From Myxococcota bacterium (GTDB lineage Bacteria > Myxococcota_A > UBA796 > UBA2385), in contig JBIJDH010000003.1 in assembly GCA_044344255.1 (NCBI GenBank), positions 96,001 to 160,000 of the forward strand: 64,000 bases of DNA, read 5' to 3'. Below are positions 5,617-55,362 of this stretch, in pieces. The notes beneath the pieces are model-generated. The model did no database searches, was not told the DNA's origin, and saw nothing but the letters and a program-made list of their open reading frames with translations. Each line of letters opens with the position of its first letter. Within the stretch, counting starts at the first letter, position 1. The translations under genes and the position numbers were made by a program.

Positions 5617-5617
5617 C

Positions 5618-9794: not shown

Positions 9795-9831
9795 CGGTTG
9801 GGCTCCACTGAAGATCGGGCAGGTCTGTCGG

Positions 9832-12727: not shown

Positions 12728-12883
12728 CGGTCGATCAGGGCACAGGCGGTTGTGGCGGGGGTGGGTTGCGGAGCGGGCTGTGGTTTTACCACGCCCCGTC
12801 CCTGGCCGGCGGCGGGCGCTCGGTCTCCTCCCAAGCTGGCCTGAAGTCCGGGCCTGAACCTCGATGCGCGGGTGATTCGCGGC

Positions 12884-18531: not shown

Positions 18532-18594
18532 GGGTCGCTCCAGCCGGCGAAGGTAACCTGGGCGCCTGTCCGCGTTCCCGATCGGTCGCCGCCG

Positions 18595-19254: not shown

Positions 19255-19284
19255 CTTCGGCCCATAGCACGGCCGACGGGGCGC

Positions 19285-23582: not shown

Positions 23583-23618
23583 GCCGCCTCCACCCGCTTC
23601 AGGTTCGTTCAGGCCCGC

Positions 23619-24086: not shown

Positions 24087-24103
24087 GGGCCCAGCTCCAG
24101 TCG

Positions 24104-25351
24104 CTACTTACCGATGTTCTTCCCGTCCTTTCGCCAGCCCTTGCGGATCTGGTTCTCCTCTTGCCGGGTCTTGCCGCCGAAGCGCCAGGAGAGGTCAAAG
24201 GCCTGCAGGGGCCAGAGGTAGGGGGAGGGGGCCGACCAGCCGAGGCCGACGCGGAGGTCGAGGTGGCGCCAGGAGGCCTGGTAGGCCGCGGTGGCCATGT
24301 AGTTCTCGAAGAGCTGGAAGGTCATGTCCTCGGAGGTGGACACCCCCGCGTTGACCGTTCCGCCGAGGCCGGCGATGGGCGGGAGCTGCGCGTCCGAGCT
24401 CACGCCCTGGGTGTACCCGGCGAAGGCGAGGCCCTGAAACTGGAGGACGAAGCTGTCGCGCCGATTGAAGCGGTAGTCCGTGGCGGCGCGCAGCGTCCAG
24501 GCGCGGCCCTTCACGTCGAGCAGGATGGTGTTGGGATCGGCCACGTTGGTGACCCAGTCCTCGTAGGTCCGGCAGCTTGGGGTGAGCTCATCGCTGCCCG
24601 GGGCGTAGCAGCCCATGGCCATCCAGTCGGGGATGTCCGAGAAGTGGGGGGGCGCCCCGGCGATGCCGATGAAGTTGTAGGTGGCGCCGACGTGGAGGGA
24701 CCAGGGCTTCAAGATCTGGACCGACGCCAGCCCGCCCGCGGTGCCGGACCAGGCGGTGAGGGTCGAGATCCGGGAGCGGAGGTAGCTGCCGGTGAAGGCG
24801 GCGTCGAAGGGCCCGGCGCTCACGAAGTTGAACTTGGCGTTGGCGTTCGGGACCTGCAGCGCGTCGAGGGCGGGGATGGTGCCGAGCTGCGTGTTCGGGA
24901 GCACGCCGACGGTGATGGTGGCGAGACCGAGCTTGAGCTCGCCCCACTCCAGGGTGTAGGCGGTGAAGTCGGTGGCCGCGTACGGGTTCTGGGGGAGACG
25001 CTCACGGGTGGGCTTGAGGAACTCGTGCTGCTCCTCGGTGAGGGGCTTGGCCGTGACCGCCTCATTGACGTTGATCGAGGCGGGCGGATCGGACTCGTTC
25101 TCCGAGCCCTCCTTCTTGCTCCCCTTTTTCTTCTTTTTCTTTGCCTGCCCCTTCTTGCCGTCCTCCTTCTTGGCCTCGCCCTTCTGGGGCTCCGCCTCGC
25201 CGGAGCCGCTCGCTTCTCCGCTACCTCCCCCCTCGGCGCCGCCTTCGTCGGCGAGGGCGATGGGGGAGTCGGACCCAAGGTCGCCCGGCTCGTTGGACAA
25301 GTCCTGGGCCCACGCGGAGCCCATCAGCAGGAGGAGTGTGTGGGGCGTCAT
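24104..25351 (-). CDS. Exported hypothetical protein, possibly outer-membrane beta-rich
   Basis: Signal peptide ending AWA; acidic/Lys-rich N-terminal linker; alternating beta-strand-like segments (FDLSWRFGG). Confidence 0.7.
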   Translation of the reverse strand: MTPHTLLLLMGSAWAQDLSNEPGDLGSDSPIALADEGGAEGGGSGEASGSGEAEPQKGEAKKEDGKKGQAKKKKKKGSKKEGSENESDPPASINVNEAVTAKPLTEEQHEFLKPTRERLPQNPYAATDFTAYTLEWGELKLGLATITVGVLPNTQLGTIPALDALQVPNANAKFNFVSAGPFDAAFTGSYLRSRISTLTAWSGTAGGLASVQILKPWSLHVGATYNFIGIAGAPPHFSDIPDWMAMGCYAPGSDELTPSCRTYEDWVTNVADPNTILLDVKGRAWTLRAATDYRFNRRDSFVLQFQGLAFAGYTQGVSSDAQLPPIAGLGGTVNAGVSTSEDMTFQLFENYMATAAYQASWRHLDLRVGLGWSAPSPYLWPLQAFDLSWRFGGKTRQEENQIRKGWRKDGKNIGK

Positions 25352-25488
25352 GGTGCAAGCTTAACAGCTCCGTCGCTGGGGTTGGAGGGGAGGGTGCTGG
25401 CGAGCGGGGCGCAGGCTCGGCCTGCGGCGGGCAGCCTCCCGCTTGGTTCGGTGGTAGAAATGCGGACCTGCCCGCGCGAGCCCCCCCT

Positions 25489-27822: not shown

Positions 27823-28706
27823 TGGACAAGAACAGGGCCGCTCTGCTGGCCGGCGTGGGGGCCTTGCTCGGGCTCGGCCTCGCCTCGGCCTCGACGCTCG
27901 ATGCCCGCGAGGTGGGGGTGGTCACCCGCTTTGGCGCCCCCGTGCGGGCGCTCACCGAGCCGGGCCTCTACCTGCACGCCCCCTGGCCCTTCGAGACCCT
28001 CGTCCGCTTCGACGCCCGTCTGAGGGTGCTCGAGACACCGGCCACCGAGTTCCTCACCGCAGACAAGAAGAACCTCGTGGTCGAGGCCTTCGCCATCTGG
28101 CGGGTGACGGACCCTCGGCGTTTCCTCGAGGCCGTGGGTCAGGTGGAGGCCGCCGAGGCGCAGCTCGTCGACCTCGTCCGCTCTCGCATCGGCGCGGCGA
28201 TGGGCAAGATGGACCTCACCGCCGTGCTCACGGTCGAGTCCGGCGCCGGCGGGCTCCTCCCCGACACCCTCGTCGAGGAGGTGTCTGCCACCGCCCTCTC
28301 CCGCTTCGGGGTGCGGGTGCTCGATGTGCGGCTCCGGCAGGTGAGCCTCCCCATCCAGAACGAGCAGTCCATCTATGAGCGCATGAAGGCCGAGCGCCAG
28401 CGCATCGCCAACCAATACCGCTCCGAGGGGGAGGAGCAGGCCACCGCCATCAAGGCCGCCGCCGACCGCGAGGCCGCCGAGCTGCTCGCCACCGCCGATC
28501 GGGAGGCCGCCATCATCCTCGCCGGGGCCGAGAAGGAGGCCGCGGCGCGCTATGCGGAGGCCTACCGGGCCAACCCGCCCCTCTACACCCTGCTCGCCGA
28601 CATGGACGCCTACCGGGCCGTGCTCGACGAGGACACCACCGTGGTGCTCGACGGCGAGAGCGGCTTCTTCGCCCCCCTCTCCGGGCGGGGGGCGTCGCTC
28701 CCGTGA
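27822..28706 (+). CDS. hflC: HflC-like SPFH protein
   Basis: VVTRFG, EFLTADKKNLVV, IYERMKAERQRIANQYRSEGEE. Confidence 0.88.
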   Translation: MDKNRAALLAGVGALLGLGLASASTLDAREVGVVTRFGAPVRALTEPGLYLHAPWPFETLVRFDARLRVLETPATEFLTADKKNLVVEAFAIWRVTDPRRFLEAVGQVEAAEAQLVDLVRSRIGAAMGKMDLTAVLTVESGAGGLLPDTLVEEVSATALSRFGVRVLDVRLRQVSLPIQNEQSIYERMKAERQRIANQYRSEGEEQATAIKAAADREAAELLATADREAAIILAGAEKEAAARYAEAYRANPPLYTLLADMDAYRAVLDEDTTVVLDGESGFFAPLSGRGASLP

Positions 28707-29560
28707 GCTCCGGCGCCGCTCGCCTCCTGCTCGCCGCGGTCGGGCTCGTGGCCCTGGCGGCCTCGACGCTGATCGTGGTCGATCCCGCCGAGGTCGCGGT
28801 GGTGCAGCGCTTTGGCGCCGCCCATCGGGTGGTGTCCGCCGGCCTCGGGCTCCGCTTGCCCTGGCCGGTCGAGTCGGTCGAGCGGGTGCGGCTCACCGAG
28901 GTGCGGCGGGTGGAGCTCCCCCGGGCGCGCCTGCTGACCGGCGACTCCAACCTCGTCGAGCTCGAGCTCGTGGCCCAGTACAGCGTCTCCGACCCTGTGG
29001 CCTGGGCCTTCGGGCCGGCCGACCCCGAGCGCCTCGTGGCCGATCTCGTCGGCGCGGCGGCCACCTCTCTGCTCTGCAAGCTGCCCGTCGACGTCCTGCT
29101 CACGAGCGGCCGGGCTGAGCTCCAGCGCCGCCTCACCGAGACCGTGCAGCCCGACCTCGACCGCCTCGGCACCGGCGTGCACCTCGTCGGCGTGGAGGTT
29201 CGAGAGATCGTGCCCCCCGAGGCGGTGCAGAACGCATTTAACGACGTGAGCAGCGCGCGCGGCGACCAGGACACCCTCCGCCTCGCCGCCGACGCCTACG
29301 CCTCCCGCCTGCTGCCCGACGTGCGCGGCAAGGCGAGCGAGCGGCTGGAGGTCGCCCGGGGCCGCGCCGCCGAGATCAAGGGCCGCTCCGAAGGGGACGT
29401 CGCCCGCTTCGAGGCCCTGCTGCCCGCTTGGCGGACCGACCCCGCCGCCCTCCGGGGTCGCCTGCAGGCCGAGCTCGCCCAGACCGTCGGGCCCAAGATC
29501 ACGATCCGCAGCCTGCCCCCGGGATCCATCCTCACCCTCCCTCCTGAGTCTCCCCGATGA
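28703..29560 (+). CDS. hflK: HflK-like SPFH protein
   Basis: VVQRFG, LPWPVE, LLTGDSNLV, VQNAFNDVSSA, GDVARF. Confidence 0.85.
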   Translation: MSSGAARLLLAAVGLVALAASTLIVVDPAEVAVVQRFGAAHRVVSAGLGLRLPWPVESVERVRLTEVRRVELPRARLLTGDSNLVELELVAQYSVSDPVAWAFGPADPERLVADLVGAAATSLLCKLPVDVLLTSGRAELQRRLTETVQPDLDRLGTGVHLVGVEVREIVPPEAVQNAFNDVSSARGDQDTLRLAADAYASRLLPDVRGKASERLEVARGRAAEIKGRSEGDVARFEALLPAWRTDPAALRGRLQAELAQTVGPKITIRSLPPGSILTLPPESPR

Positions 29561-31026
29561 ACCGCTTTCGTGGCGTCATCCTGCTCGTGGTGCTCGCCAA
29601 CATCGTGCTTGTCGCCTGGCTCCTCCTCCGGAGCCCCGAAGGGCAGGGCCCGCGCAGCGCCGCCGAGGTGGTCGCTCCGCTCGTGGCCGACGCCGCCCTC
29701 GACGGCGCCCGCTATGACCTCCAGGCTCGCCAGGGGGAGCTCAACCTCATCCTCATCAGCCTCGACGCGCTCCGCTACGACCGCACCGGCTTCGGCGGCA
29801 ACCCGGACGGGCTCACCCCCAACCTCGATCGTTTCGCCGAGGAGGCCGTGGTCTTCCACAAGACGACTGCGGCCGCTCCCTGGACGCTGCCCTCGCACAT
29901 GTCGATCTTCACCGGTCGTTGGCCCTCTGTCCACGGGGTGACGAACAAGCTGAAGCTCCTCAGCCAGGACCAGATGGTGCCCACCTCTCTGTCGCCGGGC
30001 ATCGAGACCTTCCCGGATCTGTTGATCCGCGCGGGCTACACGGCGGTGGGCTTCACGGGTGGGGCGGGCGTGCAGGCCAGCTACGGCTTCGGTCGCGGCT
30101 TCGCGACCTACCTCGACGACAAGCCCTTCGCCGGCTTCGACTATAGCGTCCCCCCGGCCTTGAGTTGGCTCCAAGAGCACCGAAATGAACGATTCTTCAT
30201 GTTCCTACATGGCTACGACGCCCACGGCCAGCACCCGCTGCTTGGCGTGAACCCCCGCGACGCCGTCCCCGACTACAAGGGCGCGCTCGACGGCTCGGTC
30301 GAGGAGCAGGCGAAGCTGCGCGAGCAGGGCCTCGCCGCCATCGAGAGCCCCGGAGACGGCGCCAACATCCGCGGCACCATCAACGAGGAGGACGCCCGCT
30401 TCCTCAAGGGCGTCTACGACCGCAAGGTCCAGCAGGCCGACGAGCGGGTGGGCGGCTTCCTCGACCAGCTCAAGGCGCAAGGGCTGCTCGAGAAGAGCGT
30501 CGTCGCCATCATCTCCGATCACGGCGACGAGTTCATGGAGCACGGCTACGTGGATCACGGGGCGACCCTCTGTGAGCATCAGCTCCACACCGTGATGCTG
30601 ATCCGCTTCCCCGGCTACACCAAGCGGCGGGACGTGCGCGAACCCGTCCGCTCCCTCGACGTCTTCCCCACCCTCTTCGACGCAGTGGGTCTCCAGGGGC
30701 CCCCGGGCGTGGACGGACAGAGCCTCTTGCCGATGCTGCGCGGCGAGGCCCAGGTCCTGCCGGTCTTCTCCGAGACCGACTATCGGCTCTTCGTTCACCT
30801 CCGCATGACCCGCGTGGGCTCGAAGAAGCTGCTGCTGGACCTCGAGGACGGGCAGCGCCAGCTCTTCGACCTCGCCACCGATCAGGACGAGGAGCGCGAC
30901 CTCAGCTCCTCGAACCCGCGAGACACCTATGAGCTCGAGCAGGCGCTGCGCGGCTGGATGGAGAAGACCCGCACGAACCCCGTGGACTACCTCGGCATCA
31001 AGCAGGAGCCGATCAAGATCTTCTGA
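29557..31026 (+). CDS. Membrane-anchored sulfatase-like protein (AlkP superfamily)
   Basis: N-terminal TM; ISLDALRYD, TPNLD, WTLPSHMSIFTG (Thr at the nucleophile position), SDHG. Confidence 0.85.
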   Translation: MNRFRGVILLVVLANIVLVAWLLLRSPEGQGPRSAAEVVAPLVADAALDGARYDLQARQGELNLILISLDALRYDRTGFGGNPDGLTPNLDRFAEEAVVFHKTTAAAPWTLPSHMSIFTGRWPSVHGVTNKLKLLSQDQMVPTSLSPGIETFPDLLIRAGYTAVGFTGGAGVQASYGFGRGFATYLDDKPFAGFDYSVPPALSWLQEHRNERFFMFLHGYDAHGQHPLLGVNPRDAVPDYKGALDGSVEEQAKLREQGLAAIESPGDGANIRGTINEEDARFLKGVYDRKVQQADERVGGFLDQLKAQGLLEKSVVAIISDHGDEFMEHGYVDHGATLCEHQLHTVMLIRFPGYTKRRDVREPVRSLDVFPTLFDAVGLQGPPGVDGQSLLPMLRGEAQVLPVFSETDYRLFVHLRMTRVGSKKLLLDLEDGQRQLFDLATDQDEERDLSSSNPRDTYELEQALRGWMEKTRTNPVDYLGIKQEPIKIF

Positions 31027-31039
31027 CAAGATCTTCTGA
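31014..31039. repeat. 13-bp tandem duplication spanning the sulfatase stop codon
   Basis: CAAGATCTTCTGA at 31014-31026 and 31027-31039. Confidence 0.85.
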
Positions 31040-31134
31040 CGGGTGCTCCGGAGTAGCGGCCGCGGGTACAAGAAGGCGAGTCGTCCCCCTTCCGTCCGGC
31101 GCTGTGGGTGGTACCATGGGGAGCATCGGCTGGC

Positions 31135-32784
31135 ATGACGCGCTGGATCTCGGAGTCTCCTTTGGCCTACACTCCCTCCCTTGACCCTGCCCTGTACGTC
31201 CACGCGAACGGCTCGGTCGACCAGCTGTATATGGACCAGATGCGGCAGCAGGACCGCAGCCCCGTCCACACCGACAGCCGCTTGCCGCGGGTGGCGCTGG
31301 TGGTGGGGCCGTCGCCCTTCTCGATGCCGAGGGGCTGGGAGTTCTTTCTGACCTCCCCCTACGAGGGGATCACGTACATCGCGACCGTCTTGATCAACGC
31401 CGGATACCCGGTGGAGATCGTGGATGTTCGATACGATCCCACCCCGCACGAGACGGCCTATCGCGCCGTGCTCGACCGCTGTGACGTCGTGGGCATCGCC
31501 ACCTTCGAGGATAACTACCCCTGGGTCGAGCGCCTGATCGCTGACCTCAAGGCCGATCGCCCCAACCTGCCGATCATCCTCGGCGGCAGCCTCGTCACCA
31601 GCGTCCCCCACGTCTTCATGCGCGAGACCCGCGCCGACGTCGCGGTCATCTCTGAAGGTGAGATCACGATCCTCGAGGTGATGGACGCCTTCACCCGGGG
31701 CAATTGGAGCTGGCGCCTCGCCGAGATCAAGGGGATCTGGTACCGCGACAGCAAGGGGCAGGTGCACGCCACCCCTCCCCGCGGCCAGATGCCCAACCTC
31801 GACTCCCTGCCGAACATGCGGCTCGATCTCTGGCCGCAGTTCAAGGACCCCCGCGGGATGCAGCCGCAGATCATCGCGAGCTACTCCCGTGGCTGCAAGA
31901 TGGACTGCTCTTTCTGTTACCGCACCACCCCGCAGGAGCGGGTGAAGTCGCCGCAGAAGCTCAATGAAGAGCTGGCCTTCCTGAAGAAGAACTATCAGAC
32001 CGAGTTCATCTTCTTCGTTGACCTCACCTTCACGGCGCACAAGAAGCAGACCCTCGAGTACCTCGACGTCATCGGGCAGCACGACATCGGCTGGACCTGC
32101 CTCACCCGCAACGCCGACGTCGACCTCGAGGTCACCACCCGAATGGGCGAGACGGGCTGCGACATCGGGCTGTTTGGCGTCGAGACGCTCACCCCCGAGG
32201 TCTTGAAGGAGGCCCGGAAGGGTTCGACCGAGAACCTCGTCTTCCGCGCGATGCGCAACGCCGAAGAGGGCGGCATCCGCTACGGCGGCCTCACCATCGT
32301 CGGCCTTCCGGGAGAGACGGAGGAGAGCCTCGACCATATGTGCGGCTGGGCTGAGGAGCACAACCACATCACCCGCGTGAAGTACCTCTCTGCCATGCCG
32401 GGCACGACGGTCTATCGACAGGGCCTGGAGTCCGGGGTCATCCGCAGCGAGGTGGAGCACCTCCGCTGGCTGTCCGTCGAGCAGGCGCTGGAGCGCGACG
32501 AGTTCCTCAACTACAACGGCCTGCCGGACGCCGTGATGCGTCGCGCTTACAAGCGCATCTACGACAGCTACTGCCCCGGTCCGGTGATGGACTTCAAACA
32601 TTACCCGGAGCACTTCGCCTATTTCGATCCCGATCCGAACCCCGCCAAGCCTTGGCGCGCCAACTTCGCCTCCGCCGGCGCGCACCCCTTCCCGGGGAGC
32701 GAGGAATTCCGCGGCCTGAAGCCAGCGAGCGAGGGGGTCACCCTCACGAACGTGGTCGCCAGCGAGTTCAACGCGCAGGTCTGA
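31135..32784 (+). CDS. Cobalamin-binding-domain radical SAM protein (class B-type)
   Basis: GITYIATVL...IILGG...SEGEIT B12-binding Rossmann domain; SRGCKMDCSFC; FGVE; IVGLPGETEES. Confidence 0.88.
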   Translation: MTRWISESPLAYTPSLDPALYVHANGSVDQLYMDQMRQQDRSPVHTDSRLPRVALVVGPSPFSMPRGWEFFLTSPYEGITYIATVLINAGYPVEIVDVRYDPTPHETAYRAVLDRCDVVGIATFEDNYPWVERLIADLKADRPNLPIILGGSLVTSVPHVFMRETRADVAVISEGEITILEVMDAFTRGNWSWRLAEIKGIWYRDSKGQVHATPPRGQMPNLDSLPNMRLDLWPQFKDPRGMQPQIIASYSRGCKMDCSFCYRTTPQERVKSPQKLNEELAFLKKNYQTEFIFFVDLTFTAHKKQTLEYLDVIGQHDIGWTCLTRNADVDLEVTTRMGETGCDIGLFGVETLTPEVLKEARKGSTENLVFRAMRNAEEGGIRYGGLTIVGLPGETEESLDHMCGWAEEHNHITRVKYLSAMPGTTVYRQGLESGVIRSEVEHLRWLSVEQALERDEFLNYNGLPDAVMRRAYKRIYDSYCPGPVMDFKHYPEHFAYFDPDPNPAKPWRANFASAGAHPFPGSEEFRGLKPASEGVTLTNVVASEFNAQV

Positions 32785-32797
32785 GGCCCCGGCGCCC

Positions 32798-33559
32798 TCA
32801 GCGGGTGGCGACCGCGACGCCGAAGAGCATTCGGTCGATGATCTGCCCGTCCCCTTGCTCCACGCCGTGGAGCGAGAGGAAGGCCGCGCTGCCCTTCGCA
32901 TAGACCTGCCGGATGGCCTCGCGGGCGCTGTCCTCGATGGCCTTGTTGTCCGCCCAGGCGTCGACGTCTTCGACGCTCACGTAGTCCCGCACCTCCACGT
33001 GCTGGGCGCCGGCGTCGCGCAGGCGCGAGGCGAGAGACGCGCGGGTGTAGAAATTGCGGCGGGCCGGGTTTCGGAGGCGGAGCACCTCGAAGTACTCGCG
33101 GGCGTCCTCCTCGCCATAGGCGCAGAGGTTGACGATGACCACGCGACCCCCGGGCTTGACCACCCGGAGCATCTCGCGGAAGGCGGCGAGGTCGTCCATG
33201 AACTGGCTGCCCTGCCGGCAGACCACCGCGTCAAAGGTCGCCTCGGCGAAGGGCAAGCGCTCGGCGGGAGACTGGACGAGGACATCGACGTGCGGCCGAG
33301 CCTGCTCGAACATCGCAGGGGTGACGTCCAGGCCCGTGATGTGGGCCACCCGGCCTCGGAAGGCGCGAGAGACGAGGCCGGTGCCCACCGCGACGTCCAG
33401 CAGCCGGTCGGCCGGGGCAGGGGCCACCGCCGCGACCGTGGCCTCGGCGAGGGCGGGGTCGGTGCACCAACGGCTGGAGCGGTCATAGTGGCCGGCCCGC
33501 TTGGTGAAGTGCTCCAGGACAGCGTCGAGGGCAGGGGTCGCGGGGTCGGTGGGGCTCAT
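32798..33559 (-). CDS. Class I SAM-dependent methyltransferase
   Basis: ATG 33559; LLDVAVGTG, GLDVTPAM, LPFAEATFDAV, RVVKPGG. Confidence 0.92.
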   Translation of the reverse strand: MSPTDPATPALDAVLEHFTKRAGHYDRSSRWCTDPALAEATVAAVAPAPADRLLDVAVGTGLVSRAFRGRVAHITGLDVTPAMFEQARPHVDVLVQSPAERLPFAEATFDAVVCRQGSQFMDDLAAFREMLRVVKPGGRVVIVNLCAYGEEDAREYFEVLRLRNPARRNFYTRASLASRLRDAGAQHVEVRDYVSVEDVDAWADNKAIEDSAREAIRQVYAKGSAAFLSLHGVEQGDGQIIDRMLFGVAVATR

Positions 33560-35502
33560 CGGGGGCTCGGCTTGGTGGCGGAGAAGATGCACCAGCGCCA
33601 CTGGTCGCGGATGTGACCGGCGGCGGAGATCTCGAAGGGGTGGACCAGTCGGGCCTCGGCGGGCGCGTGGTGGTAGAGGTCGCGGATCTCGTGTCGCATG
33701 AGGTTCGGCGTCTCGTGCGTGTTGATCCAGAGGTCGATGTCCTCCCATTGGAAGACCTCGCGCATCACGATGTCGACGAAGCCGGCCTCTTCGAGGAGGC
33801 GGCGCATGTCGGCCTCCATCAGGTTGTTGAAGAAGAGGGGCTGCTTCTTCTTTACGACGCGGAAGAACCAAGCGGCGTCACCCTCGCCGTAGGGGACCAT
33901 CTGTCCGACGATGAACTGGCCGCCGGGCTTGAGCACCCGAAAGACCTCCGAGACCGGCTTCTCAGGGCGGGGCAGCAGGTGGAGCACCTCCCGGTTGCAG
34001 ACGATGTCGAACCGATCGGCGGGGAAGGGGATGTCATAGACGTCGCCCTGCACCACCTCGTCGAGGCGGGTGCGGGCGAGGGTGATCATCTCGGGGGTGA
34101 GATCGAGGCCGGTGATGTGGCCGACCCGGCCCCGGAAGGAGGCCCCCACGACGCCGCTGCCGCAGCAGACGTCGAGCACCTGCGCGTCCGGACCCTGCCG
34201 ACAGAGCTCGGCGTGGGTGGAGAGGATGGTGGGGTCGGTCAGCCAGCGGGCGCTGTCGTGCCAGTTCTTGGAGCGGATTCCGAACTGCTGCCGATAGACC
34301 TCCTTGGACACGATGCTGTCGACGGTGCGGTAGCGAGCGCGCTCGCTCGCCCGCCGCGCCGCCGAGCGGGCTCGCCCGGCCTCGAGCGCCTTGCCGACGA
34401 TGGTGTTGCGGAGCGCCGGATCGGCGGAGAGGCGCTCCCGGAGGGCCGCGGAGATCACCGCCTCGACGGCGCGGGTGGCGGAGCGCGACGTGAGGACCGT
34501 CTTCGTCTGTCCTTCGAATTCAGGCTCGCTCATGCGCACGCTCAGCACGGCGACGAGGCCCTCGCGGACGTCGTATCCGGCGATGTGCTCACCGTTGGCC
34601 TCGTTGAGGAGGCCGGCCGCAGCCGCCGCCTCGTTCACGGCGCGGGTGAGCGCCGCCCGGAGGCCCTCCACGTGGGTGCCGCCCTGGGTGGTGCCGATGC
34701 TGTTGACATAAGAGAGCAGCTCTTCGCTGTAGTCGTGGGTCCACTGCAGCGCGGCCTCCACTTCGAGGCCCTCGAAGCGGCCCCGCAGGTGGAGCGGGGA
34801 GGGGTGCGCCGGGACTCGCTGTGCGGCGAGGTGGGCCACGAAGCCGGCGATGCCGGTCTCGAACCGATAGACGGCCTCGTCGGCCCCGGGGGTGCGCAGC
34901 GAGACGCGGAGCCCGGGGTGCAGATAGGCCTGCTCCTGGACGTATCGGGTGAGCGTCTCGACATCGAGGCCGATGCCCTCGGTGAAGATGGCGGGGTCTG
35001 GCCGGAAGCGGACCTGGGTGCCGCGGCGGTCGGCCTCCGGCGCCGGGGTGGAGGCCCCGAGCACGCGGCCCTGGGCGCAGCGGAGCTCGTGGCGGAGGCC
35101 CGCGCGCCAGACGGTCAACGTCAGGGACGCGGAGAGGGCGTTGACGCAGGTGAGGCCGACGCCGTGGAGGCCGCCGGTCACCCCGTAGGCGCCGGACTGG
35201 AACTTCCCGCCCGCGTGGAGCTCGGTGACGACGACCTCGAGGGTGGGGCGGCCGCTCTGCGGGTGCGGCTCGGTGGGGATGCCGCGCCCGTCATCTTCTA
35301 CGGTGACCGTGCCATCGTCGTCCACGACGACGGAGATCGCGGTGCACGAGCCGGTGAGGGCCTCGTCCACCGCATTTTGTACGACCTCCATCACGAGGTG
35401 GAAGACGCCGTCGGGGCCGGTGGAGCCCACGTACATGGCCGGGCGGCGGCGGACGGCCTCGAGACCGGGGAGAATGACGATGGAGTCAGCGTCGTAGCGC
35501 AT
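33556..35502 (-). CDS. Fusion of GyrB-type GHKL ATPase + transducer domains to a class I SAM methyltransferase
   Basis: ATG 35502 (TGATG overlap): YDADSIVILPGLEAVRRRPAMYVG, EVVQNAVDEA, EDDGRGIP, LHAGGKF, GGLHGVG, GGTH, FEGQTK, then in frame VLDVCCGSG, GLDLTPEM, RVLKPGG. No TOPRIM EGDSA motif. Confidence 0.92.
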   Translation of the reverse strand: MRYDADSIVILPGLEAVRRRPAMYVGSTGPDGVFHLVMEVVQNAVDEALTGSCTAISVVVDDDGTVTVEDDGRGIPTEPHPQSGRPTLEVVVTELHAGGKFQSGAYGVTGGLHGVGLTCVNALSASLTLTVWRAGLRHELRCAQGRVLGASTPAPEADRRGTQVRFRPDPAIFTEGIGLDVETLTRYVQEQAYLHPGLRVSLRTPGADEAVYRFETGIAGFVAHLAAQRVPAHPSPLHLRGRFEGLEVEAALQWTHDYSEELLSYVNSIGTTQGGTHVEGLRAALTRAVNEAAAAAGLLNEANGEHIAGYDVREGLVAVLSVRMSEPEFEGQTKTVLTSRSATRAVEAVISAALRERLSADPALRNTIVGKALEAGRARSAARRASERARYRTVDSIVSKEVYRQQFGIRSKNWHDSARWLTDPTILSTHAELCRQGPDAQVLDVCCGSGVVGASFRGRVGHITGLDLTPEMITLARTRLDEVVQGDVYDIPFPADRFDIVCNREVLHLLPRPEKPVSEVFRVLKPGGQFIVGQMVPYGEGDAAWFFRVVKKKQPLFFNNLMEADMRRLLEEAGFVDIVMREVFQWEDIDLWINTHETPNLMRHEIRDLYHHAPAEARLVHPFEISAAGHIRDQWRWCIFSATKPSPR

Positions 35503-36014
35503 CAACCCTCCACGGCGACAGGAGGGCTGAGGCGAGGCAGGTGCGCGCGGCGGCTGTGCGCCACCGACTCGAACCAGGAGGCGATGTCGGGGAAACCCTC
35601 GGCCGCCGCGGTGCGGGCGTACTCGGGGAGGTGCTCTTGGAGCTCGAGGGAGGTCGCGGCGTGCAGCGCCGCGAGGTTCCACGCGGTCTCGCCGATGGCC
35701 CGGTTGGTGAGCGGGTCGCCCACGCGACGGAGGAAGTCGAGGTGACCGCTGGCGATGAGCTCGACCGTCTCCGCCATCTCGCGGAGCGCGGTCGCGACGG
35801 TGGGGTGGCCCTCGAGCTCGGCGAGCCGCGCGAAGCTCACCAGAAGCCGGGCCGCGGCGGCGTCCCGGATGAAGGCCTCGCGGAGGTGCTCGTGCGTGCG
35901 CGTGCCGAAGAGGTCGGTCAGGCCGGAGGTCGGGGCACCGGGGCCGCCCGAGGCCTCCGGGCCGGCCGTCGGGAGCCCGGGTGCGGGAGGGGAGGGGAAG
36001 ATCGCGGGTGGCAT
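35502..36014 (-). CDS. Rubrerythrin-like ferritin-fold protein with degenerate iron ligands
   Basis: THEHLREAF...EGHPTVA...GHLDFL...GDPLT...IGET..NL...AEGFPDIASWFE matches short-chain rubrerythrins, but the ExxH motifs are altered. Confidence 0.8.
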   Translation of the reverse strand: MPPAIFPSPPAPGLPTAGPEASGGPGAPTSGLTDLFGTRTHEHLREAFIRDAAAARLLVSFARLAELEGHPTVATALREMAETVELIASGHLDFLRRVGDPLTNRAIGETAWNLAALHAATSLELQEHLPEYARTAAAEGFPDIASWFESVAHSRRAHLPRLSPPVAVEG

Positions 36015-36023
36015 CCGCCCCAC

Positions 36024-36944
36024 CTACTCGGCGAGGTCGCCCTCGTCGACCATTGGGGAGGGGGCATTCCGTCCTTGAGGACGATCTCGGTCGACGCCCC
36101 GCGCATCGACCTTGTCCCGCCAGCTCCCCCAGTGGGGGCCATCCCCTTCGAAACGATCTCTGGGCGCGTCGGGACCAAGCAGGGCCCGGAGCTCGCGACG
36201 CCCTTCCAGTCGATTGGAGTGGTACCGAAGCTGCGTGGCGGAGTAACGGTGCGCGGCCCCCTCCGGGCAGGCGAGGCGCGCCTCGCAGGTCGAGGCGCAG
36301 CGCGGGGACTCCCGGTGGAAGTCGACGCAGCGGTCGACATTCCAGCGTCCCTCCGGGAAGGCGTCGCCCGGGCAGGCGCGCGTACAGGGGGCGGGGCAGG
36401 CCAGGCAGGGCGCGGCGAGGGCGCTCGGGTCTTCGGCCGCCGGGGCGCCTGGGCGGCGAGCGTAGGCGCCGAAGGTGGCGGTGTCGTCTGCTGCGGCTTC
36501 GAGGAAGCAGGCGGCGCGGAGCCCGATCCAGGGGCCGTAGGCGGGGTGGAGCAGCAGGCCGAGCCGGCTCTGGGCGCCGAGGCCGGCGAGGCCCGCCAGC
36601 AGTCGGAAGTCGATGTGCAGGTCGGCCTCCGCGCTCGCCCAGAACCACCGGCGGGGGCCCGCCCCGAGGGCGTGGTCGGCGGTGGCGATGGTGCGGCGGA
36701 CGAAGGCGTCGAGCGGGTGCGGCTCCTCGGTGAGCGAGGTCGGGCGGGCGGCGAGCTCCGCGAGGAGGGCCGTCCACAGCGCGCCGCCGCCGTTGGCGAC
36801 GACGAGGATCGAGCGGGCGCCGGGCTGGAGGGCCGACGATCGGCGGCTCGGCAGGGCGACCGCGTCCCAGTCGGAGACCGCGGCGACCGCGAGCAGGTTG
36901 AGGCCGGCGGGGAGGACAGATCGTTGAAAGGCGTCGAGGTCCAT
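36024..36944 (-). CDS. QueG/CblC-related Fe-S protein
   Basis: HPLD, GLLLHPAYGPWIGLRAA, CLACPAPCTRACP, C...CASTCEARLACP. Confidence 0.7.
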   Translation of the reverse strand: MDLDAFQRSVLPAGLNLLAVAAVSDWDAVALPSRRSSALQPGARSILVVANGGGALWTALLAELAARPTSLTEEPHPLDAFVRRTIATADHALGAGPRRWFWASAEADLHIDFRLLAGLAGLGAQSRLGLLLHPAYGPWIGLRAACFLEAAADDTATFGAYARRPGAPAAEDPSALAAPCLACPAPCTRACPGDAFPEGRWNVDRCVDFHRESPRCASTCEARLACPEGAAHRYSATQLRYHSNRLEGRRELRALLGPDAPRDRFEGDGPHWGSWRDKVDARGVDRDRPQGRNAPSPMVDEGDLAE

Positions 36945-37039
36945 GCGGTCGGTTATCTCGCTCGCCCCGGGGCGCAGCGACCGCTGAGCTCGGCGAGGCA
37001 GCCGGTAGAGCCTGACCGATGGAGCCTGACCCGCAGACG

Positions 37040-38101
37040 ATGACCCCCGACCCCATCCTCATCGTCGGGACCGAGCGGAGCGGCTCCAACCTGCTCCGGC
37101 TGGTGCTGAACAGCCACTCCCGCATCCAAGTGCCGCATCCACCGCACCTCGTCCGCTACTTCGCGCCGATCATCGCCGATTATGGTGATCTCTCCCAGGA
37201 CGAGAACCTGCTCCGGCTGGCCGAAGACGCCGTCTCTCTCGTGAGCGGGCACATCTATCGGTGGGAGCACCGGCTCGATCCCCGGGCGGTGGCGGCGCTG
37301 GCCGAGCCGCGTGACCTCCTCGGGGTCTACTTCGCCGTGATGGAGCTCGATCGGCGGGCCTCCGGCAAGGCGCGCTCGGCCTGTAAGAGCACCTTCATGG
37401 TGCATCACATCGACACGGTGCGGCGGGCCCGCCCGGGGGCGCGCTTCCTCTTCCTCCACCGCGACCCGCGCGACGTGGCGGCCAGCGCCCGGCGCAGCGT
37501 CTTCTCTACCTTTCACCCATGGTATACGGCAAACCTCTGGCGGGAGGAGCAGGCCCTCGGCCTCCGCGCGCTGGGCGCCCTCCCCGCAGGGGTCATCCTC
37601 CCCGTCGCCTACGAGGCCCTCGTGGCCGCGCCGGAGCGGGAGCTCCGCCGGATCTGTGACTTCCTCGGTGAGGCCTTCGAGCCGGCGATGCTGCGGCACG
37701 CCGAGACCGCGGAGGCCCAGAAGAGCGCTGGCCTCGCCGAGTCCTGGGCGCGGACCGGGGAGCCGATCAGCGCGGCCTCCGTCTCGCGCTACCGGGCCGA
37801 TCTGAGCGAGCGGGAGATCGGCCTCGTCGAGTATGTCACCCGCCACGAGCTGCTCGCCCTCGGCTATGTGCCGGAGGTGGCGGCCCCGGCTCCGCCCTCG
37901 GCGGTGGAGCTGGCGCGCTTCGCGGTCGAGGAGCGCGCCGCGGAGCTCCGGGTCGAGCTGCGCTCCCTCCGGAAGGACGACAACGTGGCCGCGCGATGGA
38001 GGCGCGGCGCCTGGCTCAAGCTCCTCCGCTGGCGCGCGGCGCTGCGGGGCCGATCGACGCCCCGTGGCGCGTCGCCTGGGGCCCCGGGCGGCCCGGCGTG
38101 A
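37040..38101 (+). CDS. PAPS-dependent sulfotransferase
   Basis: IVGTERSGSNLLR (5'-PSB loop), HRDPRDVAAS (3'-PB), YEALVAAPE..LRRICDFLG. Confidence 0.9.
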   Translation: MTPDPILIVGTERSGSNLLRLVLNSHSRIQVPHPPHLVRYFAPIIADYGDLSQDENLLRLAEDAVSLVSGHIYRWEHRLDPRAVAALAEPRDLLGVYFAVMELDRRASGKARSACKSTFMVHHIDTVRRARPGARFLFLHRDPRDVAASARRSVFSTFHPWYTANLWREEQALGLRALGALPAGVILPVAYEALVAAPERELRRICDFLGEAFEPAMLRHAETAEAQKSAGLAESWARTGEPISAASVSRYRADLSEREIGLVEYVTRHELLALGYVPEVAAPAPPSAVELARFAVEERAAELRVELRSLRKDDNVAARWRRGAWLKLLRWRAALRGRSTPRGASPGAPGGPA

Positions 38102-39444
38102 GCGCCGACGCCACAGCCCGGGACACGCTCCAGCGCAGGCTCCACGCCCTCGAGGCGGACGCGGCCCTGCCCGCCCTCCCCGATGAGCCCCTCCCCGACG
38201 AGGCCCTCCGCGATCTCGTCGTGATCCTGTCGAGCTCGCGCGGCGGATCGAGCATCCTCGCCGAGGCCCTCCGCCGGCAGACCGGGCTCCTGCACTTCCG
38301 GGCCGAGGTCAACCCCTTCTTCGTGATGGCCGGCCTGAGCTGCGGGCAAGGCGGCGCCCGCTCGGACGCCCTCGGCGAGGCGGACCTCCAGCGCGCCCCC
38401 GAGGTGCGTGCCCTGCGCCGCGCCCTGCTCGCCGACATCGGCCGACCGCGAAGCACCCTGCCCGACGCCGCGGCCCGGCGGCGATACGGCCTCGATCTGG
38501 CGAGGCGCTTCACCCTGCAGTGGCCGACCCTCGAGCTCGAGCTCGAAGGTGTGCACGCGGCCCTCGAGCGGGCGCTCGACGCGGCGGCCCGGGCTCAGCG
38601 GGGGGGCGACGGGGGTGGCGAGAGGGGGGGCGAGGTCGACCTCTCCGATCCGCGCCTCGTCGTCGCTCTCGTCATCCGGGAGCTGCGCGGCCAGGGCCTC
38701 CCCATCCATCCATACGCCTACGACATCGACCCTGGGCTCCTCCGCGCCCTGTTCCCCGGTGTGCTGCCGCGCTTCGAGCCCGAGGGGCCGATCATCGAGG
38801 AGCCGCCCTACGTCGCGATCTCGCCCTGGGCCCCGGCGACCGCCGAGGAGCTCCAGCGCCTGCCCGTGGTGATGAAGACGCCGAGCAATGTCTACCGGCT
38901 CCCCTTCCTGGCGGGGCTCTTCCCGGAGGCCCGGCTGCGACTGCTCCACCTCCGGCGAAACGTAGCCTCGAGCGTCAACGGGCTCCTCGACGGCTGGGGC
39001 CACCCGGGCTTCCACAGCCATCGCCTGGGCGGGCCCGGCGGCGCGGAGGGTTGGTGGAAGTTCGATCTGCCCCCCGGCTGGGAGGCCTGGGTCGACGCGC
39101 CGCCCGGCCTTCGCTGCGCCTGGCAGTGGCGGTCGGCCCACCGCGCCGCGCTCGAATTTTTGCGCCAACGGCCCGACCTGCCGCGCTTCGCCCTCCGCTT
39201 CGAAGACCTGCTCCGGGGCGGCGAGGTCGAGGCGGCCGCGGTGGAGGCGCTCGCGGGCTGGCTGGGCGCCCCCCTCTCACCCGGCCTGCTCGACGGGGTC
39301 CCCGCGGTGATGGCGACCGCGCCGCCCCGCCGCCGTCGCTGGTTCGCCCGCGCGGCCGAGCTCGGTCCGGTGCTCGAAGACCCTGACAACATCCGCATGA
39401 TGGAGGAGCTTGGTTATGAGTCGGAGCTCACTACCTGGCTTTAG
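38098..39444 (+). CDS. Sulfotransferase-fold protein (divergent)
   Basis: GTG 38098 overlaps the upstream TGA; SSSRGGSSILAE, MKTPSN, LRRNVASSVNGL, LRFEDL. Confidence 0.75.
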   Translation: MSADATARDTLQRRLHALEADAALPALPDEPLPDEALRDLVVILSSSRGGSSILAEALRRQTGLLHFRAEVNPFFVMAGLSCGQGGARSDALGEADLQRAPEVRALRRALLADIGRPRSTLPDAAARRRYGLDLARRFTLQWPTLELELEGVHAALERALDAAARAQRGGDGGGERGGEVDLSDPRLVVALVIRELRGQGLPIHPYAYDIDPGLLRALFPGVLPRFEPEGPIIEEPPYVAISPWAPATAEELQRLPVVMKTPSNVYRLPFLAGLFPEARLRLLHLRRNVASSVNGLLDGWGHPGFHSHRLGGPGGAEGWWKFDLPPGWEAWVDAPPGLRCAWQWRSAHRAALEFLRQRPDLPRFALRFEDLLRGGEVEAAAVEALAGWLGAPLSPGLLDGVPAVMATAPPRRRRWFARAAELGPVLEDPDNIRMMEELGYESELTTWL

Positions 39445-40369
39445 GCACGAGGCCCCGAGCCACTTGGGCGGCCTGGGCTGGCGGCCTCGGACCCTCTCCC
39501 ACCGCGAGGAGATGGGCGCGCTCTGGACCGCCTCGGGCCTCTCCTCGCCGGTGGCCCCGCTCCAGGAGGTGGTGCTCGCCCTGCCCGGCCTCGAGCAGCG
39601 GTACTCCGAGGATCCCGCGCTGTGGTTGATGGAGGAGCGGCCGGAGCTCGATCGGATGCGGGGAGAGTTCGAGGGGCTGGTGAAGGCCTACCAAGCCGAG
39701 GGGGTGGTGGTGCAGGTCCACCGCCCACGCCAGCCGACGCCGAACCACATCTTCTGCTGCGACCTCTTCTTCGCCACCCCTGAGGGCATCATCCTCTCGC
39801 GGATGGCCTCCGAGCAGCGGGCCGGGGAGGAGCGGGAGATCGCGGCCTTCTTCGCCCGGATGGGCGTCCCCATCCTGCTCACGCCGCGGGGGCACGCCAC
39901 CTTTGAGGGGGCGGACGCGATGTGGCTCGACGCCCGCACGGTGCTCATCGGCATCGGAAACCGGACCAACGAGGCGGCGGTGGCCCAGCTCCGCCCCCTG
40001 CTCGAGTCGATGGGGGTGGAGGTCCGGGTCTGCACGCTCACGAGCGGGGTCCAGCACCTGCTCGGCGCCTTCAACCCCGTCGACGAGCGGGTCGCGTGTG
40101 TGCTCGCCGACGAGCTCAGCCCCTCCCTCCGTCGCGCGCTGTCCGGCTGGCGCCTGATCCTCCTGCCCAGCACCCCCGAGACCCGCCGTGGCCGGGCGAT
40201 GAACTTCGTCACGCTGTCCCCGCGCCGCGTCCTCATGCCGGCGGGGAGCCCCAACACACGCGCCCTCTACGAGTCGCAGGGCATCACGGTGATCGAGGCC
40301 CCGATCGACCAGTACCTGCGCGCGGCCGGCGGCATGGGCTGCCTCACCGGCGTCCTGCGCCGCGGCTGA
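39416..40369 (+). CDS. Amidinotransferase / arginine deiminase / DDAH (pentein) family enzyme
   Basis: RAGE, FEGAD, GNRTN, QHL, NFVTL, terminal GGMGCLT with catalytic Cys. Confidence 0.85.
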   Translation: MSRSSLPGFRHEAPSHLGGLGWRPRTLSHREEMGALWTASGLSSPVAPLQEVVLALPGLEQRYSEDPALWLMEERPELDRMRGEFEGLVKAYQAEGVVVQVHRPRQPTPNHIFCCDLFFATPEGIILSRMASEQRAGEEREIAAFFARMGVPILLTPRGHATFEGADAMWLDARTVLIGIGNRTNEAAVAQLRPLLESMGVEVRVCTLTSGVQHLLGAFNPVDERVACVLADELSPSLRRALSGWRLILLPSTPETRRGRAMNFVTLSPRRVLMPAGSPNTRALYESQGITVIEAPIDQYLRAAGGMGCLTGVLRRG

Positions 40370-55356: not shown

Positions 55357-55362
55357 GGGCGG

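Follow-up and report, generated by a model that had tools for sequence, protein, structure and literature searches.

Nine clustered Streptomyces genes are needed to make the sulfamate group (O-SO2-NH2) of nucleocidin and ascamycin, and one of them encodes NucP/AcmP, according to the published account (PMC10946740). Deletion of nucP abolishes the sulfamylation of nucleocidin, the genetic data being those for S. calvus nucP (PMC10946740). That account also names S. virens as a nucleocidin producer and states that producers hold no paralogue of any of the nine sulfamylation genes (PMC10946740). AcmP was listed in 2014 as a "DNA topoisomerase II" of 658 aa (PMC4257720, Table 1), and its best match in the same table-bearing source was a protein of Frankia CcI3 (PMC4257720). 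A literature search returned nothing on sulfamate assembly or NucP biochemistry beyond the genetics papers of 2014 and 2023 and a review of 2021. The biosynthesis of natural sulfamates is an unsolved question, and the combination of a gyrase clamp with a methyltransferase is the oddest member of the gene set.

Here we analysed a stretch of 64,000 nt (from here: the window) from a Myxococcota bacterium. It contains a gene for a GyrB-type ATPase fused to a methyltransferase (from here: P), and we consider it quite probable that P is a NucP/AcmP-family member lying within what looks like a complete sulfamoylation gene set.

The fusion gene and its two halves

P is located at positions 33556 to 35502 on the minus strand, starts with an ATG at 35502 and encodes 648 aa in one intact frame, at exactly the coordinates given in the first-pass annotation of this DNA. 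Its product consists of a GyrB-type GHKL ATPase and transducer module (residues 1–393; 34324–35502, minus strand), a linker (residues 394–399; 34306–34323, minus strand) and a class I S-adenosylmethionine (SAM) methyltransferase (residues ~400–648; 33559–34305, minus strand). The domain switch that had been noticed near 34330 corresponds to residue ~391, and a low-confidence linker appears at residues 388–396 in the AF2 model. The plus strand of 33556–35502 is an open frame as well, the translation of which is high-GC nonsense. An extension of the P frame upstream to 37125 (1189 aa) was rejected as Arg/Pro-rich, high-GC read-through that is non-coding.

P is a real, intact gene and not an assembly artefact. 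The junction between the GyrB and methyltransferase parts was bridged by one contig in all three DNA runs, which come from three studies, with no indels and no joints. These contigs, one per independent run, span 33529–34754, 33905–36200 and 33937–35188 and thereby establish the continuity across ~34330 that the first-pass annotation had wished to see confirmed. All six strain differences within P in one independent run were synonymous. Relatives of P are encoded in 205 species genomes from several phyla, and the ATP and SAM motifs are invariant in 54 aligned members, so the fusion is neither a singleton nor a gene under relaxed selection. All 120 homologues among the matches listed carried both the DNA_gyraseB and the methyltransferase Pfam domains. 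Transcription evidence was not obtained from an RNA-library run, which gave a single 151-nt contig (34130–34280).

P belongs to the NucP/AcmP family with high confidence. In this comparison, the homologues from S. virens and Frankia served as stand-ins for the deposited NucP/AcmP sequences: an end-to-end alignment of 646 columns, containing 5 gaps, gives P 50% identity with P0139 from S. virens (661 aa), and the identity with P0148 from Frankia casuarinae (658 aa) is 49%. From its species, its architecture and the published statement on paralogues, we infer that P0139 is NucP. The architecture, initially believed to be undescribed, was already in print as AcmP/NucP.

In the ATPase half, every GHKL and transducer motif named previously is visible in the translation, namely Y3...I8, E39xxxN43, DDGRG (69–73), AGGKF (97–101), GGLHGVG (110–116), WRAG (132–135) and GQTK (331–334). 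Pfam matches were HATPase_c at residues 30–170 and DNA_gyraseB at residues 217–387 (E 1.8e-47). The absence of a TOPRIM domain held in the Pfam search, and the NCBIfam gyrB models (TIGR01059) matched P over model positions 1–393 of 639 only, with 423 bits against a cut-off of 882. Solved GyrB 43-kDa fragments align to residues 3–390, in agreement with the proposed break at the boundary of that fragment. By equivalence with the residues of the E. coli protein, the GHKL ATPase and transducer of P have the catalytic Glu, the Mg-binding Asn, the adenine-binding Asp and the QTK lysine, together with the glycine lid. Across the 54 aligned members, E39, N43, D70, G72, R73, G74, K100, G111, G114, G116, Q332 and K334 are invariant, the strap residues Y3 and I8 are kept in at least 90%, and R133 of WRAG, the aminocoumarin-contacting Arg, is nearly invariant. 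These residues suggest that P is likely to be ATPase-competent and to dimerise.

A complete gyrB (977 bits) is encoded elsewhere in the host, along with another B subunit, and the N-terminal half of P is 50% identical to that of the host's own GyrB. A quick, unrooted tree of 54 NucP ATPase modules and 9 GyrB/ParE-type modules, including the host's own, answered the question of phylogeny: the NucP modules form a separate clade on one side of a branch with an SH-aLRT of 99, which suggests a single origin. P stands outside the GyrB/ParE clade and has no GyrA/ParC partner gene; as had been observed, gyrA is not nearby: the window belongs to contig C52, whereas C70 and C59 carry the gyrA-type genes.

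The methyltransferase half matched Pfam Methyltransf_11/25 at residues 442–532 (E 2.9e-22) and was modelled by AF2 with a pLDDT of 91.2, supporting the class I fold. As expected of class I SAM methyltransferases, it has a Rossmann-like fold with a glycine-rich motif I, and strand 2 is followed by an acidic residue. Within and beyond the motif LDVCCGSGV, the residues D444, C446, C447, G448, S449, G450 and D467 are invariant in the 54 aligned members, and the domain is probably catalytically active. Both halves are conserved, with median identities of the aligned relatives to P of 49% for the N-terminal and 65% for the C-terminal half. Fold and profile searches for a substrate clue yielded only proteins of unassigned function as top matches.

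Neighbouring genes and the predicted P-Q complex

Co-occurrence was counted within 10 kb of P in 80 related loci from several phyla, and the genes G, J, K, L, N and O were assigned from their domain families and from the agreement of their lengths with those in the acm table. Directly upstream of P lies a gene for a NucQ/AcmQ-like pseudo-rubrerythrin (Q; 35502–36023, minus strand, 173 aa; Pfam Rubrerythrin, 5.5e-05), which reaches 43.6 bits with the NCBIfam rubrerythrin model, far under its cut-off of 200. The TGA stop of Q and the ATG of P share one base (TGATG), and a GGAGGG element is found just upstream. Q is directly upstream of P in 73 of the 80 loci, and five of the seven exceptions have less than 400 nt of upstream sequence. 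On the other side, the ATG of a NucL/AcmL-like stand-alone SAM methyltransferase (L; 32798–33559, minus strand, 253 aa; Pfam Methyltransf_11, 7e-20) overlaps the TGA stop of P (ATGA). L is a paralogue of the C-terminal domain of P (32% identity over 240 columns), and an L-like paralogue occurs near P in 55/80 loci. A 169-aa ORF at 32977–33486 (minus strand), with matches in 7 loci, was discarded as a shadow frame of the NucL-like gene. A 900-aa metagenomic protein represents a natural P-L fusion, although only one cluster, from one contig, shows it and a frameshift may be the cause.

The start of Q is directly abutted by the stop of a gene for a Cys-rich protein (CxxCxxxCxxxCP; 36024–36944, minus strand, 306 aa) without a Pfam or NCBIfam match, which by length only (AcmI 302 aa) may be the NucI/AcmI counterpart. 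Sequence and tblastn matches to it, at 43–54% identity, were found beside cassette genes in 9/80 loci, with one short match in L011. The tblastn search against the Streptomyces loci gave no match, and in L065 the equivalent position is taken by an ORF for a different protein of 352 aa.

A NucJ/AcmJ-like B12-binding radical SAM enzyme (J; 31108–32784, plus strand, 558 aa, AcmJ 557 aa; Pfam B12-binding and Radical_SAM) is present in 60/80 loci at a median identity of 62%; its matches to NCBIfam class-B radical SAM families are all below the cut-off. The NucG/AcmG-like sulfatase gene (G) is located at 29557–31026 on the plus strand (489 aa, AcmG 480 aa; Pfam Sulfatase, 5.4e-31), and a sulfatase-family match exists in 43/80 loci, with at least 50% identity in only 15. 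Also on the plus strand are genes for a NucK/AcmK-like sulfotransferase (K; 37019–38101, 360 aa, AcmK 356 aa; Pfam Sulfotransfer_3, 3.7e-34), found in 38/80 loci, and for a NucN/AcmN-like guanidino-group-modifying enzyme (N; 39410–40369, 319 aa, AcmN 319 aa; Pfam ADI/DDAH), likewise in 38/80, the best NCBIfam match of which is dimethylargininase with 69 bits, below the cut-off.

Between these two, a 482-aa ORF (O; 37996–39444, plus strand), which probably starts further downstream than annotated, given that its homologues align only from residues 9–69 onwards, carries a weak sulfotransferase signature (Pfam Sulfotransfer_3, 1.7e-4 at residues 209–327), fitting the description of NucO in the published account (PMC10946740). 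O is present in 45/80 loci. In 5 of 5 genomes examined for loci that lack O within 10 kb it is encoded elsewhere, and of 151 sampled genomes from the phylum, 9 encode P and 10 encode O, with 9 shared. K, O and N are missing from the 10-kb flanks in about half of the loci. Directly upstream of the sulfatase gene, an EamA-transporter::SPFH fusion and two further SPFH/Band-7 genes, assigned by Pfam (25141–29560, plus strand), possibly serve export or membrane organisation for the product; this block precedes G-J-Q-P in 3–4 of the closest loci (L001, L007, L011), a weak association. By these assignments, the window apparently holds a compact and complete sulfamoylation gene set outside the actinomycetes.

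The modelled complex of P with Q scored 0.61, compared to 0.00 for the best of three controls. Among reference pairs, 116 of 157 solved complexes but just 2 of 215 mismatched pairs attained this score mark, counts that hold only roughly for P-Q because our own alignments were used. At least 90% of the contacts recur between model runs, the partner pLDDT being at least 83, and the models place Q against the methyltransferase cap (residues 537–562 and 601–616) and the transducer (276–286, 308–310, 343 and 347) of P. At the predicted interface, conservation in P is lower than in the remainder of the protein (0.56 vs 0.65; 9718 of 10,000 random sets were as high or higher), and in Q it is not significantly raised (0.64 vs 0.57; 1285 of 10,000 random sets). 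On the basis of the model, a physical P-Q complex appears somewhat more probable than its absence.

Possible roles of the clamp and the methyltransferase

The first-pass annotation had offered three roles for the fusion. The one in which a GHKL fold was repurposed for a biosynthetic step is supported by the NucP/AcmP membership of P, the nucP knockout and the gene set in the window. An ATP-gated dimerising methyltransferase, the second, is plausible and would agree with the conservation of the ATP site, the strap, the QTK residues and the SAM motif.

In gyrase, the long C-terminal transducer helix drives TOPRIM. For P, residue conservation is consistent with a mechanism in which two copies would dimerise via the N-terminal strap upon ATP binding, the QTK lysine of the transducer would sense the gamma-phosphate, and the C-terminal transducer helix would move the attached methyltransferase instead of TOPRIM. 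Bound to NucQ, and probably with its paralogue NucL working beside it, the methyltransferase would methylate an anionic intermediate that contains sulfur, with SAM as the donor. Combining a dimerising clamp with SAM-dependent methylation, we propose that ATP binding and hydrolysis gate or drive a transient methylation or a hand-over in S-N assembly. As the final sulfamate contains no methyl group, the need for a methyltransferase is unexplained, and that the specific step is the transient methylation of a sulfate- or sulfamate-type intermediate is a rather speculative suggestion.

The GHKL superfamily includes phosphotransferases, and the GHKL half could instead act like the protein kinases among them and use the ATP gamma-phosphate to phosphorylate a sulfate or sulfamate intermediate on an oxygen, giving a leaving group, while the methyltransferase acts separately. 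Such a leaving group would allow the S-N bond to form or the sulfamoyl group to be transferred. None of the residues for ATP binding and catalysis varies, but the module is of the GyrB type throughout residues 3–390, with strap, QTK loop and full transducer, features that serve hydrolysis-coupled dimerisation rather than phosphotransfer, and a substrate pocket beside the gamma-phosphate is not evident from the sequence. To our knowledge, no GyrB-type domain phosphorylates a small molecule. Sulfamate assembly does need a sulfur oxyanion to be activated, and the published pathway names no enzyme for it beyond PAPS formation (PMC10946740). Taken together, we regard direct phosphotransfer as unlikely.

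Self-resistance, the remaining role in the first-pass annotation, fared badly. In this role, an inhibitor of the gyrase ATPase, or the sulfamoyl nucleoside product as an AMP mimic, would be captured by the GyrB half and inactivated by the methyltransferase; published abstracts do describe nucleoside sulfamates as adenylate mimics, and R133 is nearly invariant. However, the WRAG Arg is common to GyrB proteins in general, the window contains no aminocoumarin or other gyrase-inhibitor biosynthetic genes, and the family is accompanied by sulfur-handling genes in every phylum sampled. The residues for triphosphate binding and hydrolysis are all present, although binding alone would not call for them, and the nucP knockout loses sulfamylation itself and not resistance (PMC10946740). 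Such a decoy is thus highly improbable.

Equally hard to credit is a DNA-directed protein, the clamp of which captures DNA while the C-terminal domain methylates it or regulates the cluster. The complete gyrase 43K module, which forms the DNA-capturing N-gate, is indeed retained, but P lacks both TOPRIM and a GyrA partner. Its methyltransferase is of the small-molecule Methyltransf_11 type, without a match to any DNA methyltransferase family, and in fold it comes closest to BH2331/YcgJ and to methyltransferases acting on natural products or phosphoethanolamine; the genetic phenotype is the loss of a small-molecule modification (PMC10946740). For an assembly chimera or a decaying pseudogene nothing was found in favour, and the junction bridged in 3/3 independent runs, the relatives in 205 species genomes, the two Pfam domains in all 120 homologues among the matches listed and the 6/6 synonymous differences dismiss it.

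Returning to a biosynthetic role, a tentative wider reading is that the nine-gene set is a portable factory for S-N bonds (sulfamoyl groups) beyond the two Streptomyces antibiotics, with NucP as a new functional class of GHKL proteins. The hosts in this reading are freshwater Myxococcota, Elusimicrobia, Gemmatimonadota, Desulfobulbia, S. griseus and S. clavuligerus. If it is true, the ATP clamp of a type IIA topoisomerase, complexed with NucQ and NucL, would spend ATP on small-molecule chemistry, in which a sulfur oxyanion would be activated transiently by a methyl or phospho group to let nitrogen replace oxygen. Family members also occur in well-studied streptomycetes without a known sulfamate product; given these and the 205 species genomes, the abundance of sulfamoylated metabolites, potent mimics of adenylates, may have been greatly underestimated. 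For enzymology, concrete starting points are offered by the complex predicted for P and Q and by the paralogy of P and L.

Comparison with known systems

Aminocoumarin clusters carry an extra full-length, functional gyrB, with TOPRIM, the product of which pairs with GyrA. P resembles this resistance GyrB in being a second GyrB-like gene inside a natural-product cluster, but it stops being GyrB-like after the transducer, its neighbours are sulfur-handling genes and the phenotype of the Streptomyces knockout is biosynthetic. The GyrB 43-kDa fragment (PDB 1ei1, 4wub, 1kij; E ~1e-88 to 1e-92) shares with P the strap Tyr and Ile, the Glu, Asn and Asp residues of the ATP site, the glycine-rich lid and the QTK loop. 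Unlike GyrB, P has no TOPRIM, tail or GyrA partner, and its C-terminal transducer helix runs into the methyltransferase.

BH2331 (PDB 1vl5) and YcgJ (PDB 1xxl) superpose on the whole C-terminal domain of P including the cap, with TM scores of 0.79–0.86, an rmsd of 2.2–2.5 Å over ~230 columns and profile E values of 1.3e-23 and 1e-18. They differ from it in being stand-alone proteins with only 21–26% identity and, since neither has an assigned function or substrate, the likeness gives no substrate clue for P.

The closest systems are NucP and AcmP (S. calvus/S. virens and Streptomyces sp. JCM9888), which have the architecture of P at 661 and 658 aa compared to 648 aa. Common to these loci are the genes for the pseudo-rubrerythrin, the B12-binding radical SAM enzyme, the sulfatase, two sulfotransferase-like proteins, the amidinotransferase-like protein and the second methyltransferase. 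The hosts of NucP/AcmP are actinomycetes, whereas that of P is a freshwater Myxococcota-like bacterium. Unlike the nuc/acm clusters, the window has no nucleoside-specific genes near P, be it for nucleoside tailoring, fluorination or tRNA-synthetase-like proteins. The gene order differs as well, with an operon of the Cys-rich gene (the putative I), Q, P and L placed between G-J and K-O-N and the EamA/SPFH block attached.

The fusion gene and the integrity of its two halves

The minus strand at 33556-35502, with an ATG at 35502, translates to a single 648-aa protein, from here on P. The coordinates and length given in the first-pass annotation were exact and every motif that it listed is present in this translation, but the gene lies on the minus strand. 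The plus-strand frame over 33556-35502 is free of stops, yet it yields high-GC nonsense when translated, and an extension of the minus-strand ORF up to 37125 was rejected as Arg/Pro-rich read-through. The G+C content of the window is 72%.

Pfam assigns HATPase_c (30-170), DNA_gyraseB (217-387, E 1.8e-47) and Methyltransf_11/25 (442-532, E 2.9e-22) to P and finds no TOPRIM domain. NCBIfam gyrB models match over only the first 393 of ~640 positions, with 423-430 bits against cut-offs of 740-882, in agreement with the earlier claim that TOPRIM is absent. The GyrB 43-kDa structures 4wub, 1ei1 and 1kij align with residues 3-390 (E ~1e-88 to 1e-92). An AlphaFold2 model of P (54 family members) reached a mean pLDDT of 88.2 and a pTM of 0.61; confidence is low at the ATP lid (98-114) and in the linker between the domains (388-396), hence the switch from GyrB to methyltransferase sits where it had been placed from the sequence. 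Likewise, no gyrA is nearby, as noted before: the gyrA-type genes of the host are on contigs other than that of the window. Two B-subunit genes of the host, a full gyrB (977 bits) and a further one (762 bits), also lie on other contigs, and separate B-subunit genes were likewise found in five other carrier genomes.

The first-pass annotation had named a chimeric assembly, or a singleton under relaxed selection, as readings that would undo the fusion. An assembly artefact is highly improbable, since the domain junction is bridged in 3/3 DNA runs and relatives occur in many species. One contig per run spans it with no indel and no joint (33529-34754 with 0 differences, 33905-36200 with 12 and 33937-35188 with 0), and these contigs came from three runs of three studies, none of which was flagged as a possible source. 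For a strain variant in one run, 6/6 differences in the fusion gene were synonymous, compared with 8/9 in the downstream methyltransferase gene, 3/4 in the upstream rubrerythrin-like gene and 0/3 in the 306-aa gene, where they fall in a tail that is not conserved. The result for the fusion gene speaks against relaxed selection on P. Searching 5.8 billion protein clusters gave 2432 matches at E <= 0.001 among 8000 candidates scored; all 120 of the matches listed combine DNA_gyraseB and methyltransferase Pfam domains (E <= 7e-140, 62-80% identity over residues 300-648). In a scan of one genome per species (185,579 species), relatives are encoded in 205 species, and the best 80 of these served for all locus comparisons. 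By record title, these 80 belong to Myxococcota, Elusimicrobia, Gemmatimonadota, Desulfobulbia, Armatimonadetes and actinomycetes (Streptomyces, Micromonospora, Verrucosispora, Actinomadura, Nonomuraea and Umezawaea), with some MAG titles ('Klebsiella', 'Bifidobacterium') looking like placeholders.

The window protein was aligned with 53 of 76 clean full-length locus proteins, picked to thin near-duplicates (n = 54). Invariant in the ATPase half are E39, N43, D46, E47, D70, G72, R73, G74, P76, K100, G111, G114, G116, Q332 and K334, while Y3, I8, Y106, H113 and R133 are kept at >=90%. Conserved residues among these presumably correspond to Y5, I10, E42, N46, D73, K103, Q335 and K337 of E. coli GyrB. 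In the methyltransferase half D444, C446, C447, G448, S449, G450, D467, R504, E505, H508, K551-553 and Q554 are invariant, together with many more aromatic and basic residues. Judged from the alignment, the GyrB-type ATP site, strap and QTK loop as well as the SAM site are intact. Median identity to the window protein is 49% (36-58%) for the N-terminal and 65% (60-75%) for the C-terminal half.

The phylogeny against host gyrB/parE that had been proposed as a check was run as a quick maximum-likelihood tree of 63 N-terminal modules. It set 54 NucP-type modules against 9 of GyrB/ParE type, taken from the genomes of the host and of the five other carriers. A branch with an SH-aLRT of 99 separates all the NucP modules from the GyrB/ParE-type ones, in a tree that is unrooted, without bootstrap and samples few GyrB. 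This separation fits a single origin and not repeated capture of host gyrB, and the family as a whole is consistent with a single origin and purifying selection in both halves.

Relation to NucP/AcmP and the gene neighbourhood

A second protein search, with a Streptomyces member as query, gave named homologues, among them a 661-aa protein of the nucleocidin producer S. virens (50% identity to P in an alignment of 646 columns and 5 gaps) and one of 658 aa from Frankia casuarinae (49% identity). Two further entries, P0160 and P0162, carry the names of Streptomyces clavuligerus and S. griseus, well-studied species for which we know of no sulfamate product; they fall in a cluster of 192 sequences. 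From its species, its architecture and a published no-paralogue statement, we infer that the 661-aa S. virens homologue is in fact NucP. According to PMC10946740, sulfamylation depends on each of nine nucleocidin-cluster genes: nucI, G, J, K, L, N, O, Q and P. Table 1 of PMC4257720 contains acmP (658 aa, 'DNA topoisomerase II', top match a Frankia CcI3 protein at 68%), acmQ (155 aa, rubrerythrin), acmO (444 aa), acmN (319 aa, amidinotransferase), acmL (250 aa, methyltransferase), acmK (356 aa, sulfotransferase), acmJ (557 aa, Fe-S oxidoreductase), acmI (302 aa) and acmG (480 aa, sulfatase). The architecture and the genetic role of NucP/AcmP are therefore already published, contrary to the first-pass annotation, which knew of no description. 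Our literature search found no biochemical study of NucP.

Judged by its genes, the window appears to contain the whole published sulfamylation set, at 29557-40369. The 306-aa Cys-rich gene, Q, P and L follow each other, tightly coupled, on the minus strand. The TAG stop of the 306-aa gene (36024-36944), a possible counterpart of nucI by length only, abuts the start of Q; the TGA of the rubrerythrin-like Q (35502-36023) shares one base with the ATG of P, with GGAGGG upstream of this overlap, and the ATG of L, a 253-aa methyltransferase (32798-33559), overlaps the TGA of P. Two plus-strand genes converge on this group and encode a sulfatase (489 aa) and a B12-binding radical SAM enzyme (558 aa). 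Three genes diverge from its other side: one for a sulfotransferase (360 aa), one for a NucO-like protein with the weak Sulfotransfer_3 signature also described for NucO (PMC10946740), and one, at 39410-40369 (+), for a 319-aa enzyme modifying guanidino groups. APS kinase, for PAPS supply, is encoded elsewhere in the host genome. The 319-aa enzyme goes by 'amidinotransferase' in the literature; DDAH models score best, the top NCBIfam match being dimethylargininase (DDAH) at 69 bits, below cut-off. Speculatively, the sulfamate nitrogen could come from a guanidino compound, if a DDAH-like hydrolase frees an N-substituted amine from it.

L and the C-terminal domain of P are paralogous, with 32% identity over 240 columns. 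A comparable pairing occurs in another genome of the same class, where a 252-aa paralogue (G097:C14:9211-9936; 43% identity to the C-domain of the fusion) directly adjoins the fusion gene. A 900-aa metagenomic protein joins P and L in one chain, its L part being 63% identical to that of the window; as a single cluster on one contig, it is a weak hint at most.

The 306-aa protein has no family match, and its CxxCxxxCxxxCP motif resembles an Fe-S cluster site. Further genes surround the group. At 25141-29560 (+), an 893-aa ORF combining EamA transporter and SPFH/Band-7 domains is followed by two further SPFH genes, a block also present upstream of the sulfatase and radical SAM genes in three of the closest loci (L001, L007 and L011). 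Three radical SAM genes lie at 1730-9908 and 18097-25351 (-), and an HMPTM zinc-ribbon domain is present in two of them; short-chain dehydrogenase, acyl-carrier-protein-like, nitroreductase, ketosynthase-like and FabA-like genes accompany them. Together they may make up a separate lipid/polyketide-like gene set. None of the 80 related loci has a match to the ketosynthase-like, the FabA-like or the adjacent 415-aa gene. Two paralogous adenylate/guanylate cyclase genes, each with a DUF5939 domain, are located at 10853-12883 and 53557-55362 (-).

Co-occurrence of the partner genes and a predicted contact with Q

Q and sulfur-handling genes appear to be obligate companions of the fusion family. 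With tblastn of window proteins against the 80 loci (>=50% query coverage, E <= 1e-8, within 10 kb), Q was detected in 73, the B12-radical SAM gene J in 60, a second, L-like copy of the methyltransferase domain in 55, O in 45, a sulfatase-family match in 43 (only 15 at >=50% identity), K and N in 38 each and the 306-aa gene in 9; because many loci are short contigs, the counts are minimum values. In the nine loci with the 306-aa gene, the homologue stands beside cassette genes at 43-54% identity, with the last ~23 residues not conserved. Unrelated window neighbours (prolyl oligopeptidase, tryptophan dioxygenase and others) were found in 0/80. Of the seven loci without Q, five have <400 nt of upstream sequence. 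Where O was missing within 10 kb, a homologue was located elsewhere in the genome in 5/5 cases (E <= 4e-68). Among 151 evenly sampled genomes of the phylum to which the window belongs, the C-domain of P occurs in 9 and O in 10, including all 9 (the tenth match is weak and partial); no statistic is given because kin are not independent.

The METHYLTRANSFERASE half folded alone (57 sequences, the window and 56 of 79) with a pLDDT of 91.2. Its nearest structures, BH2331 (1vl5) and YcgJ (1xxl), share its fold (TM 0.79-0.86, 21-26% identity) and are both without assigned function; natural-product and phosphoethanolamine methyltransferases follow at TM ~0.6, and the structure comparison gave no clue to the substrate. 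As Q is almost always directly upstream and translationally coupled, P was modelled with Q residues 40-173 in three runs with three controls. The score was 0.61 (runs 0.59-0.68) versus 0.00 for the best control; in a benchmark, that score was reached by 116/157 solved complexes and 2/215 mismatched pairs, rough counts given that our own alignments were used. The runs share >=90% of contacts, with a partner pLDDT of >=83. In the model, the methyltransferase cap (537-562, 601-616, 511-512) is crossed by Q helices 66-77 and 145-160, and Q also contacts the transducer at 276-286, 308-310, 343 and 347. The prediction supports binding of Q to P. Conservation gave the predicted interface no further backing: P is less conserved there than over its remaining residues, and Q shows no significant excess.

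A putative ATP-gated step in sulfamylation

NucP, the Streptomyces orthologue, is needed for sulfamylation (PMC10946740). In the mechanism that we propose, ATP binding would bring two clamps together as it does in GyrB 43K, the transducer helix would pass this on to the methyltransferase/Q module, and a SAM-dependent reaction of an anionic sulfur intermediate would thereby be gated or driven. The final product carries no methyl group, so methylation would have to be transient or on a cofactor or carrier; as the specific step, we regard this as a tentative and rather unlikely proposal. The main rival, direct phosphorylation of a sulfur oxyanion by the GHKL domain, would draw on the same apparently intact ATP site, and we hold it to be improbable. 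That P is a decoy or resistance protein, as the first-pass annotation had considered, or acts on DNA, appears very remote in either case.

The passages of PMC4257720, PMC10946740 and reviews consulted here hold no counterpart to four points about the fusion family: its breadth beyond actinomycetes, the paralogy of NucL and the NucP C-domain, the single clamp origin and the predicted P-Q contact. Compared with the nuc and acm clusters, the window has none of their nucleoside-specific genes near the fusion.
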